This document shows positions 3,296-28,301 of a stretch of 64,000 nucleotides of DNA, in pieces. The notes under the pieces were generated by a model. The model was not told where the DNA came from. It saw only the letters and a list, made by a program, of their open reading frames with translations, and ran no database searches. The stretch spans positions 7,587 to 71,586 of the forward strand of contig JBPCVZ010000098.1 of NCBI GenBank assembly GCA_051010015.1, given 5' to 3'. The translations under genes and the position numbers were made by a program. The number at the start of each line of letters is the position of its first letter. Position 1 is the first letter of the stretch. This DNA is from Hyphomicrobiaceae bacterium (GTDB taxonomy: Bacteria; Pseudomonadota; Alphaproteobacteria; Rhizobiales; Hyphomicrobiaceae).

Positions 3296-4204
3296 ATGCC
3301 CCTTGTCATGAACAGCGATGTATTCATCACTTGTGCCGTCACGGGCTCAGGTGGGACTCAGGATCGTAGTCCGCACGTGCCGCGTTCCCCGGCCGAGATT
3401 GCCCAAAGCGCAATCGCGGCGGCGAAGGCGGGCGCGGCCATCGTCCACTGTCATGTTCGAGATCCAGAAACCGGCACGCCGTCGCGCGATCCCAAGCTTT
3501 ACCGCGAATTGACTGAGCGCATTCGTGACTCACACGTCGACGTCGTTCTAAATTTAACGGCGGGAATGGGCGGCGATCTTGTCTTCGGATCGCCGTCGGC
3601 GCCGCTGCCGTTGACTGAAGCGACCGACATGGTTGGTGCTGAAGAACGTCTGGTCCATGTCGCAGAGTGCCAGCCGGAAATCTGCACGCTTGATTGCGGC
3701 ACTATGAATTTCGCGGAAGCGGACTACGTCATGACCAACACACCGGGCATGCTTCGGGCGATGGGTCGGCAAATCACGGAGCTGGGCGTGCGACCCGAAA
3801 TCGAAGCGTTCGATACCGGCCATCTATGGTTGGCCAAGCAATTGGTCAGTGATGGTGTGCTCGCAAGCCCGGCACTTGTTCAATTGTGCATGGGTATTCC
3901 CTGGGGGGCACCGGACGACCTCAACACGTTCCTGGCAATGGTCAACAATGTGCCCCGGGATTGGGTCTGGTCAGGATTTTCGATTGGGCGCAACCAGCTT
4001 CCTTACGTTGCCGCAGCGGTGCTTGCCGGGGGGAATGTCCGTGTCGGCCTGGAGGACAATCTCTGGTTGGCCAAGGGGGAACTCGCGACCAACGAGGCGC
4101 TGGTGGAACGGGCAGTCACGATTGTCGAGGCGATGGGTGCAAACATCGTGCGACCAGCCGCGGTGCGGGAAAAACTCTGCCTGAGGAAACGGGCACCACG
4201 ATGA
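3296..4204 (+). CDS. cdhC: BKACE family (3-keto-5-aminohexanoate cleavage enzyme / DUF849) protein; probable 3-dehydrocarnitine cleavage enzyme
   Basis: FITCAVTGSGGTQDRSPHVPRSPAEIAQSAIAAAKAGAAIVHCHVRDPETG is the classic BKACE N-terminus. Stop overlaps the ATG of the carnitine dehydrogenase gene (ATGA at 4201-4204). Alternative start ATG 3308 (MNSDVF...). Confidence 0.85.
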   Translation: MPLVMNSDVFITCAVTGSGGTQDRSPHVPRSPAEIAQSAIAAAKAGAAIVHCHVRDPETGTPSRDPKLYRELTERIRDSHVDVVLNLTAGMGGDLVFGSPSAPLPLTEATDMVGAEERLVHVAECQPEICTLDCGTMNFAEADYVMTNTPGMLRAMGRQITELGVRPEIEAFDTGHLWLAKQLVSDGVLASPALVQLCMGIPWGAPDDLNTFLAMVNNVPRDWVWSGFSIGRNQLPYVAAAVLAGGNVRVGLEDNLWLAKGELATNEALVERAVTIVEAMGANIVRPAAVREKLCLRKRAPR

Positions 4205-18765: not shown

Positions 18766-20223
18766 CTAGATCGATGGGTTCTTCGAAATGAAGTGAAACC
18801 CTTTGATTGTCGGCCGGTTTGCAAGTTCCCGCACCAGTGTGAGCAAGGGTGTTTCCATCACCGGATAGTCCGTGTTGATTGGTCCGGCTTCCTTGAGAGC
18901 ACGGTATTGCTGATCGTCGTAGAAGGCGGCCAGCAGCAGATCATCGTCATTTGCGAACGGTCCACGGGAAGCGCGCAGGCGTTTGAGCGCAGGCGGCACC
19001 AGCGCGCCCGGGCGCTCGGTGATCGGTTCGGTCCCGCGTGTGATCTTGTCGTAAAGATTGGGCTCGATCGTTCCGGCAATTTCTCCGTAGCCGCCGCGAA
19101 CATACAGGCGGACTTCGTCGGGAACGGTGTCGTAGCGCGCCTTGCCCTGGTCGCGTCCCATGACATTGAGGATCGCCATCGTGACGATGTACTGCGCGAA
19201 CGGACTGATCACGATCGGATAGCCAAGGTCCATGCGAACGCGACCGGCCTCTTCGAGGATTTCCTCCAGGCGGTCCGCGATGCCGATGGTCTCGAGCTGG
19301 TAGGCCAGATTCGACACCATGCCGCCGGCACATTGGTGGTGGTAGTGGAACTCATCGTATTCATTTGGCGTGCCGACCGGCTTGTCCTCCTTTTCGGCAA
19401 TATACGCCAATCGTTCTGCAACTTCGTTGATTGGTGCGAGATCAATATCGACATCGTAGCCGCGTCGCCGACAATTGGCGGTGAAAAGTTCGGTCGGGCT
19501 GTGGGAAACGCCATTGGCAAGCGTCGACGTGGCAGTATGGACGACGTCGACACCATGTTCGACGGCTTGCAGCACGACATAGGGAGCGAGGCCGGAATTG
19601 CAGTGCGTGTGGATCTGCAGGGGCATCTCACCGATCGCTTCCTTGATCGCCGGGACGAGCGTGGCAACGCGTTCCGGCCGCAGCAAACCGCTTGCATCCT
19701 TTATGAACACGGCGTCGACGCCGTGCGTGACGAGCTCTTTGGCCTTGCCGACATAGTAGGCGTCGGTGTGGACGGGACTGTACGTATAGGCGAGGCCGCC
19801 AACGACGTAGAGGCCATGCCGCTTGGCCGTTTTTATCGGAATTTCGAGATTGCGCATGTCGTTGAGCGCATCGTAGGGCGTGTGGTAGCGCATACCGTTG
19901 GCGGCGAAGCGCTCCGCGGCAAGCTGCACGACATCGTCGGCGAAGAACTCGAAGGTAAAGAGGCTTTGCCCGCGTGTATGAATAATGAGCGGTGTTTTGG
20001 TGATCCACTTGTTCAGTATGCGCATCCGCTCCCACGGATCTTCGCGCAGGTAACGCACCATGACATCAAACACGGCGCCGCCGACGAGATCGATGGCCTC
20101 AAAGCCCGCCTCGTCGAGACGCGGCGCGATTTCCTTCATCATCGCCGTGGTCATGCGCGTTGCCCAAAGGCATTGATGGGCATCGCGCAGTGTGACATCG
20201 ATCAATCGGATTGTGCGTCCCAA
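18766..20223 (-). CDS. OadA/PycB-type carboxyltransferase subunit (HMGL-like TIM barrel + PYC_OADA domain), no biotinyl domain; paralogue 1
   Basis: IDVTLRDAHQCLWATRMTT, VFIKDASGLL (lysine at the carbamylated-Lys position) and LQIHTHCNSG (HxH) are the metal-site motifs of pyruvate carboxylase CT / oxaloacetate decarboxylase alpha. It ends without an (A/V)MKM biotinyl domain. The TTG start abuts the TAA of the biotin carboxylase gene. Confidence 0.85.
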   Translation of the reverse strand: MGRTIRLIDVTLRDAHQCLWATRMTTAMMKEIAPRLDEAGFEAIDLVGGAVFDVMVRYLREDPWERMRILNKWITKTPLIIHTRGQSLFTFEFFADDVVQLAAERFAANGMRYHTPYDALNDMRNLEIPIKTAKRHGLYVVGGLAYTYSPVHTDAYYVGKAKELVTHGVDAVFIKDASGLLRPERVATLVPAIKEAIGEMPLQIHTHCNSGLAPYVVLQAVEHGVDVVHTATSTLANGVSHSPTELFTANCRRRGYDVDIDLAPINEVAERLAYIAEKEDKPVGTPNEYDEFHYHHQCAGGMVSNLAYQLETIGIADRLEEILEEAGRVRMDLGYPIVISPFAQYIVTMAILNVMGRDQGKARYDTVPDEVRLYVRGGYGEIAGTIEPNLYDKITRGTEPITERPGALVPPALKRLRASRGPFANDDDLLLAAFYDDQQYRALKEAGPINTDYPVMETPLLTLVRELANRPTIKGFHFISKNPSI

Positions 20224-21591
20224 TTAGCTGCCCTTTTTGCTGAAACGGTCCAAGAACACACGCTCCACCCAACGCGTGTCGATCCGGCTTGAAATGAAGT
20301 CTGGATCGTCTACGAGAGCACGATGAAACGGCCGAAGTGTCGAAGCGCCGGTGATTTCGAACGTGTCGAGTGCGCCACGGGCGCGTTCGAGGGCGGCAGA
20401 ACGGTCAACGTCGTGCACGATAAGCTTGGCAATCATCGAGTCGTAGAATGGCGGAATCTCGATGCCCTGATAGACGAAGCTGTCGACGCGAATACCTTTG
20501 CCTTGCGGCGGGCGCCAAGTCGTGACGCGACCGGGTGACGGTCGGAAGTTCTGCGTCGCATCCTCGGCATTGATGCGGAACTCGATGGCATGTCCACCGG
20601 GCCAGTCCGACTCTTGCGGCACTGACAATGGTTCCCCGAGGGCGACTCGCAGTTGCTCGACGATCAGGTCATGACCGATGCGCAACTCGGTAACCGGGTG
20701 CTCTACCTGAATGCGGGTATTCATCTCGATGAAAAAGAACTGACGAGCGCTCTCGTCGAAAATGAACTCGACGGTGCCGGCACCCTGATAGCCGACACCC
20801 TCGGCGAGCTTGACCGACGCATCAAGCAGCGCTGAGCGTTCGTCATCCGACAGCACTGGCGAAGGGCTTTCTTCCACTAGTTTCTGATGCCTTCGCTGTG
20901 TCGTGCAATCGCGTTCCCCGAGATGGCGTACCGTACCGTGCGTATCACCGAAAATCTGCACTTCGAGATGGCGCACAACCGGGAAATAGCGCTCCAGATA
21001 GATCGCCGGATCGCCGAATGCTTCGCTCGCCTCCTGCGTCGCTTGATTGAACAATCCGGTGAATTGAGTCGCCTCTTCGACAACCCGCATGCCGCGCCCG
21101 CCACCGCCTGCGCTGGCCTTGAGCAGCAATGGGTACCCGATTGCGCTGGCCGCCTCGACCGCTTCATCGGCAGTCGTGAACGTGCTGGCAGATCCCGGAA
21201 CGATCGGGACGTCGTAGTGCTCGGCCGTCGCACGTGCCTGCGCCTTGTCCCCCATCGTACGGATGCACTCCGGAGACGGGCCAACAAAGACCAGGTCTTC
21301 GCGCGCGCATCGCTCGGCGAATGTGGCGTTTTCGGCAAGGAAACCGTAACCAGGATAGACAAGTGTGCATGAGGTCTTTCGTGCCACGTGCAACAGCGCG
21401 TCGACGTTGAGATAGCTGTGTCGGCTGGGCGGCGGTCCGATGCAGATGGCTTCATCCGCCATTAGCACGTGTGGAGCCGAACGGTCGGCCGCCGAATAGA
21501 CCGCGACACTCTCAAGCCCTAGCGCCTGACAGGCACGGATTGCGCGAATCGCAATCTCTCCCCGGTTGGCAATCAATACTCGTTGGCGCAT
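20224..21591 (-). CDS. Biotin carboxylase subunit (AccC-type ATP-grasp)
   Basis: MRQRVLIANRGEIAIRAIRACQALG..., GYPLLLKASAGGGGRGMRVV, FIEMNTRIQVEHPVTE. Trimmed from the 505-aa ORF to ATG 21591. Confidence 0.9.
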   Translation of the reverse strand: MRQRVLIANRGEIAIRAIRACQALGLESVAVYSAADRSAPHVLMADEAICIGPPPSRHSYLNVDALLHVARKTSCTLVYPGYGFLAENATFAERCAREDLVFVGPSPECIRTMGDKAQARATAEHYDVPIVPGSASTFTTADEAVEAASAIGYPLLLKASAGGGGRGMRVVEEATQFTGLFNQATQEASEAFGDPAIYLERYFPVVRHLEVQIFGDTHGTVRHLGERDCTTQRRHQKLVEESPSPVLSDDERSALLDASVKLAEGVGYQGAGTVEFIFDESARQFFFIEMNTRIQVEHPVTELRIGHDLIVEQLRVALGEPLSVPQESDWPGGHAIEFRINAEDATQNFRPSPGRVTTWRPPQGKGIRVDSFVYQGIEIPPFYDSMIAKLIVHDVDRSAALERARGALDTFEITGASTLRPFHRALVDDPDFISSRIDTRWVERVFLDRFSKKGS

Positions 21592-21754
21592 GCGCTGGTC
21601 ATGTTTGTTGGCGGGCTCGGACGAACTGGCAGACAGTTGGCGAGCTTGGATATTGGCAGGCTGAGGAGCGCTGTGCAATTGTATCAAGCATGGCAATGCG
21701 CCTATGGTTCTGATATTCGGCCCGGCGGGGAACGGCAACACGGAAGGTCATCGC

Positions 21755-22249
21755 ATGACGTTAACGTTCAAGGAAGTGTCCGAGATCATGAAGATCATCG
21801 ACGCCTCTGAATGCGAAGAGGTTGTGTTGGAGTTGGAAGGCATGAAGCTTGTCGTGCGCCGCGGCGCAACCGCCAATGCTGGCGTGCCGGTTGCGGCCTC
21901 CGTCGCGCCCCCCGCTGCCACGGCGACGCCGTCAGTCCAGGCCGTTGGCCCGGTACCGGGCGAAGCCGCGCAGCAACCCGCTCCGATTGCCGTCGAAGCC
22001 AGCGCAGAGGGTGTTCAGGTGCGCGCGCCGATGGTCGGATCGTTCTATCGGCGACCGTCACCGGACCAGCCGCCGTTCGTCGAAATTGGTTCCAAGGTGA
22101 AGGCGGGCGACCCGCTCTGTCTCATCGAGGTCATGAAGCTCTACACCACCATCGAGGCGACGGTGGCCGGCACGGTCAAACAGATTGCTGCCGAGGATGC
22201 CGGGCTCGTCGAATTCGATCAATTGCTGTTCGTGATAGCACCGGACTGA
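21755..22249 (+). CDS. Biotin carboxyl carrier protein (free-standing BCCP)
   Basis: BCCP-like N-terminus MTLTFKEVSEIMKIIDAS, an Ala/Pro-rich linker, and a biotinyl domain with GDPLCLIEVMKLYTTIEA. GGAAGG RBS. Transcribed divergently from the biotin carboxylase. Confidence 0.85.
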   Translation: MTLTFKEVSEIMKIIDASECEEVVLELEGMKLVVRRGATANAGVPVAASVAPPAATATPSVQAVGPVPGEAAQQPAPIAVEASAEGVQVRAPMVGSFYRRPSPDQPPFVEIGSKVKAGDPLCLIEVMKLYTTIEATVAGTVKQIAAEDAGLVEFDQLLFVIAPD

Positions 22250-22289
22250 GTGCAACCCGGCGCGTCGGCAGCTGCATCTCGCAAGGTTC

Positions 22290-23684
22290 CTACTGACCGT
22301 TCACCCTGAATTTGAAAGGGCGCCGGCTCCAGTAGGTTGGCGCGACGACCGTCACCGGCTCCCGGCCGACGATCCGCGTCGCCTGCTGCCAAGCATGGTC
22401 GAAATCGCGCGCCGGCGAAATGCCGAGCCGGCGAAACAGGCCGGGATTTTCGGTGCCGGCCAGAATGACCTTCGATGCCCGGCTCAGCATGTAGTCGCAC
22501 GAATACATCAGCCAGAACGGGTGGATCGGGTGGTAGGCATGCGCGTGGCGGTATTGCTCAAGATAGGTTTTGTTCGCTGCAACCGACGATTGGAACTTTG
22601 ACAACTCCGATATATCCGACACCTGATCGAATAGCTCCATGACCTCTCGCGTCGACGCATAAGTAGCTTCGTCGTACTCTCCCGTTGAAGGATTGAGCCC
22701 AATGATCACGCCGCCTTCGCGCAGCACGTGGTCTCCGAGCCAGACGCGCGGCGGATAGCCCATGCCGATCGCCGCAATGAGCGGGTTGTTGGCGCTGCCA
22801 TAGGCGAAGGCGGCGGGCAGGCCGAGGACAAGCACATCGGCTTGCGGGACGTCGACGATGCTGAAGGCGTCGGCCGCGGCCCAGGCCGGCTCCTCGAGTT
22901 CGGGCGAGTAGCCGGCAAAGATGTTGTTGATCGTGCCGCCAGTGCCGCCAATCCAATTGATGTAGAATATCCGCTTTCCCGTCTGCTGTTCGATTTGGGC
23001 GTTGATCTCCGCTTTCAACTGGCGAAAGTACATCGCACGATGGTCACCGGTCGTGGTCTTTGGGTGATTGACGACGCGATGGTTGTGATGCGAAGCAATC
23101 GAACGCGTTGAGGCAAGGCCGATGGCGGCGCCGGTGCCGGTGTATCCACCCCAACTGTGGGCGACGACCTGGCCGACATAGATCATGAGGTCGGCTTCGA
23201 GAAAGCGGCGATTGTGGTCAACGATTGCGCCCCCCGGCGTCTGGCCGAGATCCTTGAGCTCGGCCGGATCGAGACAGTCGTGGTTGGTGACCTGCCCGCT
23301 TGGATGGAACGCGTCGAAGATCTCGTTGCCCAAGAAATTGCGCAACTCGGCATCGGTCCATTTCTTATGATTGCCGTTGGCGGAAATGAACACGATGTCG
23401 TCTTTGGCAATGCCCCACTCGAGCAGCTTGTTGACGAGAACACCGAGAATTCGTTGCCAAGGCGGTGGGGGCTTGGTTGGATCATCATGGCCGATGGCAA
23501 CTGTCATGCCCGGCTTGATCAACGACCGGAGCGAGGGCGCGCCATGGGGAGAGCTGAGCGCGGCTTCGAGCAGTGCCACGGGATCCGGATGGACGGGCGG
23601 GTCTTGAAACTCCGCAACGACAGCACTGTCAGGCAGGTCAACGGTGATCTTGTCCGCACCGAAATCGATATCGACGTGTTTCAT
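22290..23684 (-). CDS. LarA-like / DUF2088 domain protein (nickel-pincer racemase superfamily, divergent)
   Basis: By-eye alignment to L. plantarum LarA: VAIGHDDPTKP vs ISSDHTRP, ANGNHKK vs ATGFHRP, EADLMIYVGQVVAHSWGGYTGTG vs EADLLISEGFIESHFFAGFSGGRK, and IASHHNH vs IMANHSG. N-terminal layout (DLPDSAVVAEF...PVALLEAALSSPHGAPSLRSLIKPGMTVAI) matches Lar_N. Confidence 0.65.
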   Translation of the reverse strand: MKHVDIDFGADKITVDLPDSAVVAEFQDPPVHPDPVALLEAALSSPHGAPSLRSLIKPGMTVAIGHDDPTKPPPPWQRILGVLVNKLLEWGIAKDDIVFISANGNHKKWTDAELRNFLGNEIFDAFHPSGQVTNHDCLDPAELKDLGQTPGGAIVDHNRRFLEADLMIYVGQVVAHSWGGYTGTGAAIGLASTRSIASHHNHRVVNHPKTTTGDHRAMYFRQLKAEINAQIEQQTGKRIFYINWIGGTGGTINNIFAGYSPELEEPAWAAADAFSIVDVPQADVLVLGLPAAFAYGSANNPLIAAIGMGYPPRVWLGDHVLREGGVIIGLNPSTGEYDEATYASTREVMELFDQVSDISELSKFQSSVAANKTYLEQYRHAHAYHPIHPFWLMYSCDYMLSRASKVILAGTENPGLFRRLGISPARDFDHAWQQATRIVGREPVTVVAPTYWSRRPFKFRVNGQ

Positions 23685-23708
23685 AGGATCGTTCCGCGTT
23701 CGATGATG

Positions 23709-25163
23709 TCAGCTATTGTAGTGGAATCTGAACCCAGGCTTCTCGACGCTGACCATGGTTTTCGCTGGTTGTTTGTTCAGCTCCTTGATCAAATGCAGCA
23801 CTGGCGATCCAACCACGCTGAACGCTTGCGTATCAATCGTGCCACTGATGGCGGTATCGACCAATTCCTTGTCGAAGAAGTAGCGGAGCAACCGTTCGTC
23901 GTCTGAAATGCTGGGATATAGCTTGCGTAGTTTCGGCACCACCGGTTCGAGATGCGGTGGTGTGAGCGCCACCTCCTTCGGTCCGCGCTCGACGATTTTG
24001 TCGAGCACATCAGGTGCGATCGGGGCGAGCAGCCTGCCATAGTAGCCGAGCGCATATTTCTTCATCTCGAGCGGCACGATGTCATAGCGCTCTCCGCGCA
24101 CGACATTGAGGGTCGCTTGGACGCCGATCAGTTGGGCAAATGGGGTCACCTGTATGGGGTAGCCGAGTTCAGCGATCACGCGGGTACTTTCCTCGAGCAC
24201 TTCAGGTAGCCTGTCGCCAAGGCCGGCAGCATCGAGCTGTGCCTTGAGGTTCGAGTGAACGCCGCCGGGAATCTGGTGGCCCATGAACGACGCATCGAAA
24301 TCGCGTGGCGCGCCGCGCGGTTTGCCGGTTGTCTCGGCGACGGCGTCGAGATGCACGCTGATTTCGGCGATGAGTGCATCGTCGATGTCGACGTCGTAAC
24401 CCGCGTACCGCAGGTTTCGCACGGTCGTTGTCACGGACGGCGGGGCGTTGGCATCGGCCAGCGGCGGCACGGAAGTGTAGAGATGATCGACACCGAGATC
24501 GATAGATTCGAGATACGTCTGCTGACACAGCCCGATCAGCCCGTGACTGTGCAGGCCAAAAGGCATGTCTCCCATTTCCTGGCTGATGGCTGGCACAAGC
24601 GTACGCGCGCGTTCCGCGGTAAGAATGCCGCCGGTATCCTCGATCATGAGTTTGTCAACGCCGATGTCGTCGATGAATTCACGCGCCTTTGACGCATACA
24701 ACTCGTCGCTGTGGACCGGGCTGAGGCTGTAGGTCAGCCATCCTGTCACCTCGGCTCCCAATTTGCGCGCATGGCGGATCGCTGGTGCAATGTTGCCAAG
24801 ATCATGGAGGCCGTCGAAGGCGACGAACTTGGTTATGCCGTTCGCGAACAACCGCTCGGCCCAAAGTTCGCTCAGATCATCGGGAACCATGTCGAAGCCG
24901 AGCACACACTTGGACCGGAACAACGCCTGCATCGGCGTTCGCGTGATGCGCTCGGAAAGCAGCCGGAGCCGTTGCCAAGGATTCTCACCAAGATAGCGGA
25001 CGCATGCATCGAACTGAACGGCGCCGACGACTTCAACCACGTCGAAGCCGGCGCGATCCAGCCGCTCGGCGGCGGGTAGCATCATCGGCGTCGTCATGCG
25101 GGTTGCCCAAAGGCACTGCTGCGCGTCGCGAAAGGTCGTATCAACCAAACCAATCCGCTTCAT
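23709..25163 (-). CDS. OadA/PycB-type carboxyltransferase-like subunit, paralogue 2 (metal-site lysine replaced), no biotinyl domain
   Basis: VDTTFRDAQQCLWATRMTT, LMIEDTGGIL (Glu where CT enzymes have the carbamylated Lys) and GLHSHGLIG (HxH retained). Colinear with paralogue 1 at roughly 35-40% identity by eye. The 730-aa track ORF is trimmed to ATG 25163 (MKRIGLV..., GAGGA upstream). Confidence 0.8.
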   Translation of the reverse strand: MKRIGLVDTTFRDAQQCLWATRMTTPMMLPAAERLDRAGFDVVEVVGAVQFDACVRYLGENPWQRLRLLSERITRTPMQALFRSKCVLGFDMVPDDLSELWAERLFANGITKFVAFDGLHDLGNIAPAIRHARKLGAEVTGWLTYSLSPVHSDELYASKAREFIDDIGVDKLMIEDTGGILTAERARTLVPAISQEMGDMPFGLHSHGLIGLCQQTYLESIDLGVDHLYTSVPPLADANAPPSVTTTVRNLRYAGYDVDIDDALIAEISVHLDAVAETTGKPRGAPRDFDASFMGHQIPGGVHSNLKAQLDAAGLGDRLPEVLEESTRVIAELGYPIQVTPFAQLIGVQATLNVVRGERYDIVPLEMKKYALGYYGRLLAPIAPDVLDKIVERGPKEVALTPPHLEPVVPKLRKLYPSISDDERLLRYFFDKELVDTAISGTIDTQAFSVVGSPVLHLIKELNKQPAKTMVSVEKPGFRFHYNS

Positions 25164-25313
25164 GATTTGAGGTCCTCGGCAGCAAACGTCCAGGCCGGCA
25201 AGTGCCGGTTTCATTGGACCGGTGGTTGTCCATCTATTAAAGATAACCACAGACGGAAAGACGTTGAAAGATGGCCTGAGTGACATCGGGGCGCTGCAAA
25301 CGAGGGGAGGTCT

Positions 25314-26603
25314 ATGGAAAGCATCATCCTGCTTCTGGCTTTGGTCGTCCTGATTCTTCTCGGATCGCCGATCGGTTTCACCCTGATCCTCTTGCCGACA
25401 ATATATGTGCTGATCACCGATGCGGCACCGCTCACGCTCATTCCGTTCAAGATGTTTGACGCGATCGATTCGATCCCGCTGACCGCAATCCCGTTCTTCA
25501 TGCTGACCGGCGAACTGATGACCAGCGCGACGATTACCGATCGGTTGGTTGAATTGAGCCGACGCATGATCGGGCGTATGCGCGGCAGTCTTGCCCAGGT
25601 CAACGTGCTGGTCAGCATGTTCTTTGCCGGCATGAACGGCTCGGTCGTCGCAGATGCTGCAACTGTCGGTTCGCTCTTGATACCCGCCATGAAACGCGCC
25701 GGTTATCCGTCCGCATTTGCGGCCGCGATTACGGCTGTGAGTGGAACGATTGGGGGGATCATTCCGCCCAGCATCGCGATGATCATTCTGGCGAATGCCG
25801 GTGGCATCTCGGTTGGCGCGTTGTTTGCGGCCGGGATCGTTCCGGGCCTTCTGATCGGTTTCACGTTGATGTTCATCAACTGGACATTGGCAGTGCGCCA
25901 TGGCTATGAGCGCAGCGAAGAAGCCTTTAGTTTCGGCGCGCTCGGCAAGGCGGCTGGCGCGGCATCGTTTGCGTTGATTATCCCGATCGTGTTGGTTGGT
26001 TCGGTGGTTGGCGGCATCGCCGGCGTCGTCGAGGCCGGCGCCATTACCGCGACAACCGCACTGATCGTCGGGCTGTTCATTTATCGCACGATCACCTGGA
26101 CGAACTGTAAGGGTGCTTTTGTGCGCGCCTTCCGGACCAGCGCTTCCGTCTTCATTATCATCGCTGCGGCGGGCCCGTTCAGCTGGCTGCTGACCTCCCT
26201 CGGTGCCATCAAGGAACTAGAAACATGGTTGCTGACGTTCAAGGATGATCCGCTGCTCTTTGCGTTCGTCATCGTAGCGTTCATCTATATTCTCGGGATG
26301 ATCATGGATGCTGCCGCGAATATCATCGTCGTCGGTCCGGTGTTGATCCAGGTGATGGTCGCAGCAGGCTATCCTGAAGTCCAGGCAGCCATGGTCTGTG
26401 TCGTTGGGTTCCTGATTGGCACGGTGACGCCTCCGCTCGGCGTTGCGTATTTCACGACCGCCGCGATCGCCAAAGCCAGCCTTGAAAATGTCGCGCTTGC
26501 GATGTTGCCGTATCTGCTGGCCCTGTTTGGCTTGTTGTTCCTATTGGTCGTCGTGCCGGATGTGACGATGTGGTTGCCCGGCGTGTTGGGCTTCGTCAAA
26601 TAG
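25314..26603 (+). CDS. TRAP transporter large permease subunit (DctM family)
   Basis: 429-aa polytopic membrane protein. IPLTAIPFFMLTGELM and MFFAGMNGSVVADAATVGSLLIPAM are DctM hallmarks. RBS GGGGAGG. Confidence 0.9.
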   Translation: MESIILLLALVVLILLGSPIGFTLILLPTIYVLITDAAPLTLIPFKMFDAIDSIPLTAIPFFMLTGELMTSATITDRLVELSRRMIGRMRGSLAQVNVLVSMFFAGMNGSVVADAATVGSLLIPAMKRAGYPSAFAAAITAVSGTIGGIIPPSIAMIILANAGGISVGALFAAGIVPGLLIGFTLMFINWTLAVRHGYERSEEAFSFGALGKAAGAASFALIIPIVLVGSVVGGIAGVVEAGAITATTALIVGLFIYRTITWTNCKGAFVRAFRTSASVFIIIAAAGPFSWLLTSLGAIKELETWLLTFKDDPLLFAFVIVAFIYILGMIMDAAANIIVVGPVLIQVMVAAGYPEVQAAMVCVVGFLIGTVTPPLGVAYFTTAAIAKASLENVALAMLPYLLALFGLLFLLVVVPDVTMWLPGVLGFVK

Positions 26604-26616
26604 CTGGAGCTGACGG

Positions 26617-27177
26617 ATGGTCGATTTTCTCGTCGCGATTGACAAATGGTATCGCAATATCTTGGCCGGGATCTGCATGCTCGCACTGTTCTTGATGGTG
26701 GCCTTTACGGTCTACACGGTGTTCATGCGCTATGTGTTTTGGGACCCGCCGGTGTGGGGCGACCTGATGACCGTCCTGAGTAATATTTGGCTGGTCTTCA
26801 TCGCGCTCGCATTGACGGTCCGGGAGAAAGAGCACATCGCGCTCGATTTCCTCTATACGCGCCTGCCGTTGTTCTGGGGCTTCGTGATTCAGTTGTTGTG
26901 GGCCATCATAATATTCGCGCTTGGTCTCGTGATCTGCATTTATGGTTATGAGGCGGCCATCACGAACTTCGGTAAGTACTGGGAGATGTGGTACTTCGCA
27001 TGGCAGGACGGCGGTTTTGTCTTCAAGCCGAACTATATGCCCAAGAGTTACCCGATGATGATCCTGCCGTTGGCCGGCGGCTTGATTGCTTTTTCAGCAC
27101 TGGTTTCCGGCCTTGAAGACATCTTTCGCTATCGCAACGGCACCTTCACGGTGGCAGCCGGCAGTTCAAGCGGCTGA
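26617..27177 (+). CDS. TRAP transporter small permease subunit (DctQ family)
   Basis: 186 aa with four predicted TM segments. It sits 13 nt after dctM. N-terminal DKWYRNILAGICMLALFLMVAFTVYTVFMRYVF is DctQ-like. Confidence 0.75.
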   Translation: MVDFLVAIDKWYRNILAGICMLALFLMVAFTVYTVFMRYVFWDPPVWGDLMTVLSNIWLVFIALALTVREKEHIALDFLYTRLPLFWGFVIQLLWAIIIFALGLVICIYGYEAAITNFGKYWEMWYFAWQDGGFVFKPNYMPKSYPMMILPLAGGLIAFSALVSGLEDIFRYRNGTFTVAAGSSSG

Positions 27178-27203
27178 ATTGGCGCCCGCCTCAGTTGGCA
27201 AAA

Positions 27204-27230
27204 AATTGGGGGCCAACCCGGCCCCCAATT
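27204..27230. terminator. Bidirectional intrinsic terminator between convergent dctQ and dctP
   Basis: Perfect 11-bp inverted repeat AATTGGGGGCC-aaccc-GGCCCCCAATT. Flanked by an A-run on the left (27200-27205) and TTTCATTTC on the right. Confidence 0.65.
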
Positions 27231-27254
27231 TCATTTCACTCTGGCTGAACGCTG

Positions 27255-28301
27255 CTATAGCGCCTTCGCCGCCTTCAGCTTGGCGAGGAGATCGGTCAGG
27301 CCCTGCTCTTTCAAAGCACGTTCGGCCATCTTGGCATCGTAGGTGCCTTTTGCGCCCTTCCAGGCCAACACGGCACCGGCGTTCCATTTTGCCTGCTCTT
27401 CCGCGTTCGGCTTGTAGTATGTTTTCACATTCTTCTTGATATTGGCCGCGCCTTTGGCGGTCCATTTGCCATCCAGGGCAATGGCTGCCGGAATTGTCTC
27501 ATCCATCGCCTTTTGGAGTGCTTCCTGGGCCCACTTCGGCAGTTTCTGGAAACGCTTTTCATGCATGTAGATGACGTTGGCACCCCAGGCACCGCCCATA
27601 ATCGTATAGTGCTTTGTAACTTCATGCAGCTTGCTAAGGTCCTGCCAGGGCTGCTGCACATACTGGCCGTTGACGACGCCCGTTTGCAGACCTTGGTAGA
27701 GCTGCGTCCAATCGTATGGGATCGGCACCCCGCCCCATGATTTGATCAAAGTGAATTCGACCGGGCTCTTGGTGACCCGGATCTTGATCCCTTTGAGGTC
27801 TTTCGGCTCCTTGACCGGGCGAACGCTGTTGCCAAGCGCGCGAAAGCCGCCAACCGAGAACACACCAAAGACGCGGAACGGTGTCTCCTTCAAAGCGCGC
27901 GCATGCAGCTCCTTGCCAAACCAGCCCAAGGCAAGCTTGTTCGCGTTGTCGGAGTCCTTGAAGATGAATGGTAGGTCGGTGATTGCGTAGGTGGCGGAAA
28001 AGTTACCGAAATTCGCCGTTGAGCTCGTTGCGATATCGACAAGCCCCTGCATCGCCTGCTCGCCGCACTTCTGTTCACCACAGATTGATCCCGACCAGTG
28101 CGGCACGACCTCCATCTTTCCGCCCGAGTACTCTTTGACCTTAGGCATCAGCACTTCGACGATTGCCTGGCCCATTGACACTTTTGGGTTGGCGACCGTG
28201 CCGAGTTTTAGAGTGATCTCTGCGGCAAGCGCCGGGCCCACAAGCACCGTCGAGGCAATGGCCGCCGTTGAGGCGAAAGTCACGAATTGTCCCAACTTCA
28301 T
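27255..28301 (-). CDS. TRAP transporter substrate-binding protein (DctP family)
   Basis: Signal peptide MKLGQFVTFASTAAIASTVLVGPALAA. DLPFIFKD. GGFRALGN contains the conserved carboxylate-binding Arg. Also DLKGIKIRV and LQTGVVNGQ. Confidence 0.9.
   Translation of the reverse strand: MKLGQFVTFASTAAIASTVLVGPALAAEITLKLGTVANPKVSMGQAIVEVLMPKVKEYSGGKMEVVPHWSGSICGEQKCGEQAMQGLVDIATSSTANFGNFSATYAITDLPFIFKDSDNANKLALGWFGKELHARALKETPFRVFGVFSVGGFRALGNSVRPVKEPKDLKGIKIRVTKSPVEFTLIKSWGGVPIPYDWTQLYQGLQTGVVNGQYVQQPWQDLSKLHEVTKHYTIMGGAWGANVIYMHEKRFQKLPKWAQEALQKAMDETIPAAIALDGKWTAKGAANIKKNVKTYYKPNAEEQAKWNAGAVLAWKGAKGTYDAKMAERALKEQGLTDLLAKLKAAKAL

Follow-up and report, generated by a model that had tools for sequence, protein, structure and literature searches.

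The window analysed here, a 64,000-nucleotide stretch of a Hyphomicrobiaceae genome, encodes two carboxyltransferases (CTs) that share approximately 41% identity and are the only PYC_OADA proteins found in the genome (91.7% complete), in which no canonical pyruvate carboxylase (PC) CT domain was found. CT1 (18766..20223, minus strand) is of the Lys type, named for the residue at the carbamylated-lysine position, has a serine at the threonine site and starts directly after the stop codon of a biotin carboxylase gene (BC; 20224..21591, minus strand), the product of which belongs to a clade common to CT1 and the Glu-type loci. Next come a biotin carboxyl carrier protein gene (BCCP; 21758..22249, plus strand), divergent from BC, with an intact biotinylation motif and a TIGR00531 score above the cut-off, and a LarA-like gene (22290..23684, minus strand), so that BC, BCCP and the LarA-like gene all lie between the two CTs. 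The second CT, CT2 (23709..25163, minus strand), is found 24 bp upstream of the LarA-like gene and has an intact frame that runs from 25163 to 23709 and encodes a stand-alone, Glu-type CT subunit of 484 amino acids with HMGL-like and PYC_OADA domains and no fused biotin domain. Divergent from CT2 are the genes of a TRAP transporter (25314..28301), with dctM and dctQ on the plus and dctP on the minus strand. Throughout 18766-28301 the orientations are unusual in that BCCP is divergent from BC and convergent with the LarA-like gene, as are dctM-dctQ with dctP; since the strand layout is repeated in a second locus, L001, and its TRAP part also in L247, it does not result from an assembly error.

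The LarA-like gene is local to the genus, and the nearest matches of its product are 9q2u and 9q3j, both LarA-like structures, and the LarAH14/15/16 model (score 217, far short of the cut-off of 740); it is apparently without the lysine that follows the GGY motif in the 9q2u and 9q3j chains. Both the LarA-like gene and the window TRAP genes accompany CT1 in a congener that is devoid of CT2 (G094); they were rejected as partners of CT2 and thus left out of the substrate inference. Elsewhere in the window (3296-4204), a gene for a beta-keto acid cleavage enzyme (BKACE) lies 14 kb from CT1 and shares only 30% identity with the type linked to CT1, of which contig C125 has a 67% fragment at its edge. 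Two further contigs of the genome, C29 and C447, carry likely orthologues of a long DctP (58%) and a hydrolase (59%), the counterparts of which flank Glu-type genes in other genomes.

In phmmer alignments, Glu175 of CT2 (codon GAG, 24639..24641, minus strand) falls opposite the lysine of Vibrio cholerae OadA (PDB 2nx9) with no gaps around the site, and the lysines of M. flagellatus PycB (5ks8) and transcarboxylase 5S (1rqb) are likewise ungapped opposite it, so that all of the solved CTs aligned have a lysine at the equivalent of position 175. The carbamylated lysine of V. cholerae OadA is numbered Lys178 (PMC2881705). The first-pass annotation had claimed that the lysine is replaced by glutamate in the second paralogue, and the alignments bear this out; the motifs it had quoted were all found in both proteins. 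Its view of CT1 as canonical holds for Lys175 and these motifs, but not for the essential threonine of PC, in place of which CT1 has a serine. The AlphaFold model of CT2 (pLDDT 92.9) superimposes on 2nx9, 5ks8 and 1rqb with TM-scores of 0.81-0.82 and consists of a TIM barrel and the PYC_OADA subdomain, which is the fold of the pyruvate-type (DRE-TIM) CTs. The carbamylatable lysine at the end of strand 6 is absent from it, and no substitute is available: Lys85 is shared by 91% of the Lys-type sisters and Lys171 shows no conservation, which argues that no lysine has migrated to replace Lys175. Among the 120 best homologues of CT2 (55-97% identity), position 175 is glutamate in 114 and glutamine in six, and never lysine; in other lineages it is tyrosine, glycine or alanine. 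Conservation among orthologues, on which the annotation had made its claim depend, is thus found throughout, and alignment places no alternative lysine at the site. Judged by these alignments, the change from lysine to glutamate in CT2 is real and clade-wide and is not a lesion.

The other residues of the active site are retained. Arg12, the metal ligand Asp13 and Gln16 (25116..25130, minus strand) are invariant, as are Asp176 and Arg83 (24915..24917, minus strand) in the alignment of 120 homologues, and the latter we take to be the anion-binding arginine of pyruvate CTs. The metal ligands His205-x-His207 (24543..24551, minus strand) are kept in 119/120 and 120/120 homologues, respectively, and together with Arg12, Asp13 and the downstream Glu44 the metal-site set of CT2 is complete except at position 175. 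The biotin-site Thr340 (24144..24146, minus strand), the threonine that shuttles a proton to biotin, is kept in 119/119 homologues and, by motif alignment, is presumably the equivalent of Thr882 in Rhizobium etli PC. Its retention matters because Thr882 is catalytically essential in that enzyme (PMC5895798). The substitution of His by Gln in the RDAHQ motif, to which the annotation had attached meaning, turned out to be uninformative, since position 15 varies among the orthologues (60 His, 57 Gln) and glutamine also occurs there in Lys-type proteins, and it was dismissed as a second lesion. The tryptophan of the pyruvate pocket, located in the strand-2 loop, is replaced by Val46 in CT2 and by Met, Val, Ile or Ala in its orthologues; with Arg83 kept and this tryptophan lost, the substrate of CT2 is probably anionic and larger than pyruvate. 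CT2 is under purifying selection, with dN/dS values of 0.037 and 0.051 against two orthologues, compared with 0.025 and 0.034 for CT1 and 0.093 for BC, all of them rough as dS is near saturation.

The Glu/Gln proteins form a single clade (support 0.999 and 100), the closest relatives of which, at 45-53% identity, all have lysine. Compared with 54 Lys-type relatives, Cys86, His120, Trp142, Asp237 and Pro241 are fixed in the clade, Gly203 and Tyr229 are nearly so, and Cys208 is lost. Within the active site, the exchanges that accompany Glu175 are Cys208 to Gly or Asn, Asn237 to Asp, Gln241 to Pro and Ala142 to Trp, and of these Asp237 and Pro241 (24441..24455, minus strand) are clade-specific loop changes at positions where Lys-type proteins have Asn and Gln/His. 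Positions 208, 237 and 241 are located on the loops that adjoin the HxH pair and the strand after it, which suggests that the metal surroundings of CT2 have been rebuilt rather than simply broken. An altered metal site, which the annotation had offered as one of two explanations, is therefore supported by the clade-wide change, the retained catalytic residues and the co-changed neighbours; with glutamine at the site in six orthologues, the Glu carboxylate itself is a candidate metal ligand. Family-wide, Gln, His or Asn occupies position 241 in 77/94 Lys-type and 2/48 non-Lys proteins by raw count, but only four phylogenetically independent pairs are available, of which three are concordant (p 0.25, not significant), and the coupling of Lys175 to Gln/His241 is treated as a lead only.

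Of 150 representatives of the family, 96 have Lys at site 175, 16 have Glu, seven Tyr, five Arg and four Gly. Some of the Glu proteins constitute a second clade distinct from that of CT2, and a joint grouping of the two was rejected (AU p = 0.0002, LG+G4 model, with the groups picked after a first tree); by this test the change from lysine to glutamate arose independently more than once. On the two Rhodococcus plasmids searched, all CTs belong to the second clade: it accounts for the sole CT of the 984-kb plasmid of Rhodococcus oxybenzonivorans and for all three CTs of an R. pyridinivorans plasmid, one of which lies in a cluster of the order kinase-BCCP-BC-CT-OB-fold-thiolase-phosphatase. Clusters for Hpe-like phosphorylation and carboxylation are found in cultured strains on Rhodococcus plasmids (L170:3246-10774 and L176:11872-23777) and a Novosphingobium plasmid (L175), and in their CTs Glu or Tyr replaces the lysine. 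Non-Lys proteins of the whole family mostly retain Thr340 (44/48), Arg83 (43/48) and Gln16 (46/48).

What a decayed copy looks like is seen in a Paraburkholderia tandem pair, the first gene of which has visibly degenerated and lacks Arg12, Arg83 and Thr340, all three of which are present in CT2. Such tandem CT pairs follow BCCP and BC in L012:6490-9434 and also in L013, L014, L016, L021 and L098-L100, from Paraburkholderia and metagenomes; the first CT has arginine at the lysine site, and the second has glycine or alanine there and asparagine for His205. By these residues, the L012-type tandem is a better candidate than CT1 and CT2 for a pair of pseudo-subunit and catalytic subunit. A different tandem, of Glu-type and Gln-type paralogues with BCCP, occurs in L028:8603-11455 and in JGI 3300072015, where neither BC nor a Lys-type CT lies within 10 kb; the Gln-type copy in L028 also carries glutamine for His205. 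In L047:13409-14938 and related Lys-type sister clusters, an acyl-CoA-type carboxyltransferase (PF01039) adjoins the keto-acid-type CT, BCCP and BC. Random samples of the class, the order and a Burkholderiaceae-type family yielded no further Glu-type genomes, and literature searches found neither a Glu-type CT nor an assayed non-Lys CT.

That the two paralogues are linked, as the annotation had supposed, is evident from their distribution. CT1 is present in 13/14 Glu-type genomes and in 3/81 other genomes of the order that supplies most of them, although seven of the Glu-type genomes (G637-G643) appear closely related and the count overstates independence; the fourteenth has another Lys-type CT, so that none of the 14 CT2-clade genomes is without any. 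The BCs beside Glu-type genes and beside CT1 form one clade (support 1.0). Adjacent CT1 and CT2 genes occur in four different arrangements (the window and L001, L025, L035 and L002), and CT1 is found within the fetched DNA at about 5/33 Glu-type loci. In the opposite direction, of the 15 genomes in the family sample that have a CT1 orthologue, 12 are without the Glu type, and the congener G094 (100% complete) has the cluster of LarA, TRAP, CT1, BC and BCCP and lacks CT2. The G094 cluster (L247) also holds a TauE-family exporter and a BKACE gene, and CT1 often adjoins a BKACE gene elsewhere.

The Glu type also occurs on its own with the biotin machinery, being the sole CT in the BC/BCCP clusters of four metagenome contigs (L112, L032, L114 and L030); in L112 the order is IclR-BC-x-BCCP-CT-ligase-SDR-SDR, and BCCP overlaps the start of the CT. 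BCCP adjoins the Glu-type CT in 16/23 loci and BC in 8/23, many of the contigs being short, and some loci (L026) have neither within 10 kb. Marivibrio halodurans has a Glu-type CT and no CT1 match, and its BC of the CT1/Glu clade is divergent from BCCP and has no CT beside it; it also encodes a Lys-type sister that has a separate BC and BCCP, so that a Lys-type partner for the Glu type is possible there. The orphan BC/BCCP pair (L251:11078-13478) adjoins a PF03601 membrane protein, presumably a YeiH-type exporter, and is approximately 5 kb away from pyruvate carboxylase. Speculatively, this exporter, the one in L247 and the NMT1-type transporters at CT1 loci could indicate a sulfonate substrate for CT1. 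The simplest reading of these arrangements is that CT1 and the Glu type draw on a common BC/BCCP pair, which the Glu type can use even where CT1 is lacking. Among its other neighbours, a TRAP transporter with a long DctP occurs in 10/23 Glu-type loci compared with 1/75 sister loci, and an acyl-CoA ligase (5), a fused E1 dehydrogenase (5), OB-fold/thiolase proteins (3) and SDRs also recur in the 23 loci. Naming a substrate from the long DctP was abandoned, since its PDB matches are only distant.

The organization of the CT2 system resembles that of HpeCBA, AcvCDE and XccABC, which are three-component biotin enzymes; CTs of such architecture carboxylate methyl ketones, and HpeCBA carboxylates 4-phospho-acetophenone with one ATP per turnover (PMC9618137; bioRxiv 2022.04.28.489975). 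Like these phosphophenylethanone carboxylases of Rhodococcus rhodochrous GD02, Sphingobium SYK-6 and Aromatoleum aromaticum EbN1, respectively, CT2 belongs to a catabolic cluster with separate BC, BCCP and stand-alone CT genes, and enzymes that process beta-keto acids are found near Glu-type loci too. In contrast, the phenol kinase and HAD phosphatase are absent from 23 Glu-type and 21 CT1 loci, and the syntenic stand-ins (L171, L172 and L181) through which the comparison was made, in place of the characterized HpeA and AcvE (UZF45673.1 and WP_014074976.1; PMC12624787) and XccA (WP_011236023.1; PMC9618137), keep the lysine, have threonine in place of Arg83, are 32-37% identical to CT2 and fall into a different clade. 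The comparison suggests that CT2 works like the Hpe, Acv and Xcc enzymes but is not one of them. The best PDB sequence match of CT2 is OadA (2nx9, E 5e-81), with the same fold and the same Arg/Asp/Gln/Arg/HxH/Thr set; however, CT2 has Glu for Lys178, Val for the pocket Trp and no fused biotin domain, and lies far below the TIGR01108 cut-off for OadA (339 against 756). A Na+-pumping role was rejected, as no OAD beta subunit was found in 5/5 Glu-type genomes, including that of the window at 91.7% completeness. Transcarboxylase 5S of Propionibacterium (1rqb) is likewise a stand-alone CT of similar length with a separate biotin carrier (TM 0.82), but CT2 lacks the lysine, has BC in its cluster and scores 253 bits against a cut-off of 827, and no 12S-like partner (Carboxyl_trans) was found among the cluster ORFs. 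With the PC CT domain and PycB (5ks8), CT2 shares the CT fold and catalytic core and a BC partner encoded nearby; it differs in its separate BCCP gene and in the changed lysine and pocket Trp, and it stays under all PC/PycB cut-offs (NF006761, 389 < 402; NF009554, 183 < 965), with no Biotin_lipoyl match.

We favour, with moderate confidence, the reading of CT2 as an active subunit of a three-component ketone carboxylase of the Hpe/Acv/Xcc kind that would act on an anionic substrate through a rebuilt, carbamate-free metal site. Activity is supported by the catalytic residues retained in about 120 orthologues and lost in the decayed Paraburkholderia paralogue, by the Glu type as sole CT beside BC/BCCP and the orphan BC/BCCP pair of Marivibrio, by the independent Glu clade as the only CT type on the Rhodococcus plasmids, and by Thr340 and Arg83 being mostly kept in non-Lys proteins. 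The main argument against it is that mutation of the carbamylated lysine in 5S and PC reportedly destroys or nearly destroys activity and that a glutamate side chain is several angstroms shorter than carbamyl-lysine. The presence of some Lys-type CT in all 14 Glu-type genomes counts against stand-alone activity, as does the fact that the four sole-CT clusters are known from metagenome contigs rather than whole genomes, and the lysine kept by the Hpe-like proteins checked also weighs against the favoured reading. Carbamate-to-glutamate swaps are known in amidohydrolases, on which our literature search found no paper.

We infer the catalysis, reaction direction, metal geometry and substrate class of CT2 as follows. 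First, BC would spend ATP and bicarbonate to load CO2 onto the shared BCCP. Next, CT2 would bind a ketone with an anionic group, as Arg83 is kept and the pocket residues are unlike those of pyruvate enzymes, and enolise it with the metal held by Asp13, His205 and His207 and with Arg12, Gln16 and Thr340; here the carbamate would not be needed, and Glu175 probably acts directly or via water, aided by the changes at 142, 208, 237 and 241. Finally, the enolised ketone would be carboxylated to a beta-keto acid, which CoA ligase and thiolase-type enzymes would then cleave. The neighbours fit such a route of organic acid import, carboxylation next to the ketone and beta-keto acid cleavage. CT1 and CT2 would both be catalytic subunits, each with a substrate of its own, and would be served by the same BC and BCCP.

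An improbable alternative, which nevertheless fares best among the rivals, is that CT2 is an active carboxyl donor, in which the carboxylate of its substrate, a beta-keto acid, would occupy the carbamate position, and that the CO2 removed would pass to BCCP for CT1 or another Lys-type CT to spend as carboxybiotin, so that two keto-acid-type CTs would make up an ATP-sparing transcarboxylase. It would explain the recurrent CT1-CT2 adjacency, why dependence runs one way (CT1 in nearly all Glu-type genomes, and alone in most of its own), why the Glu type adjoins BCCP at twice as many loci as BC and how carboxybiotin is discharged in five genomes where no OAD beta subunit was found. However, one common BC/BCCP accounts for the co-occurrence equally well, the apparent close relatedness of half the genomes inflates the count, the Glu type is found with BC and without CT1 in the four metagenome clusters, and Marivibrio retains BC despite missing CT1. 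The related idea that residue 175 sets the direction of carboxyl transfer, with the Glu type specialised in decarboxylating a beta-keto acid and the Lys type in carboxylating another ketone without the cost in ATP, is a shade less probable still.

The annotation's other explanation, a non-catalytic or ligand-sensing subunit paired with CT1 in a heteromeric CT, is disfavoured, and we give it a low probability. The loss of a supposedly essential residue, the co-occurrence with CT1 and the common BC clade speak for it, as do the tandem pairs with one decayed copy that exist in the family; but CT1 mostly occurs without CT2, even in the complete genome of the congener with the same cluster, CT2 retains all other catalytic residues, CT1 is within reach at few Glu-type loci and is missing from Marivibrio, and the Glu type stands alone with BC and BCCP or in tandem with a Gln paralogue and no Lys type nearby. 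An obligate scaffold for CT1 is thus an unlikely role for CT2. Non-biotin DRE-TIM enzymes carry a small residue at the carbamylated-lysine position, and CT2 could, with a probability lower again, be a biotin-independent member of this group, a beta-keto acid decarboxylase or a retro-aldol lyase, resembling relatives in which the lysine was never present. Weak matches of CT2 to aldolase and synthase models and loci such as L026 are in line with it, whereas the retained Thr340 and PYC_OADA subdomain and the BCCP genes that adjoin most Glu-type CTs, overlapping the CT start in L112, are not. A strain-specific lesion, sequencing error or decaying pseudogene would require just one transition, AAG to GAG, but has a negligible probability and is refuted by the absence of lysine from all 120 homologues, their synonymous use of GAG and GAA for Glu175, a dN/dS of about 0.04 and the intact frame.

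The overall architecture of the CT2 system is familiar, but the change that it carries at a textbook residue is conserved and convergent. The family as a whole appears as a large unexplored set of putative CO2-fixing ketone carboxylases that are labelled as oxaloacetate decarboxylase alpha or pyruvate carboxylase B, and these database labels sit in genomes where no OAD beta subunit was found. Two roles have been proposed for the carbamylated lysine of PC, OadA and transcarboxylase, that of a metal ligand and that of a CO2 relay, and in the relay model Lys178 of OadA carries CO2 between the substrate and biotin (PMC2881705). Since glutamate is unable to form a carbamate, a relay of this type would be impossible in a Glu-type CT; activity in a Glu-type CT would mean that the relay is not general, and the co-changed positions 142, 208, 237 and 241 would tell how the site compensates. 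The Glu-type family thus offers a natural test of what the carbamylated lysine does.
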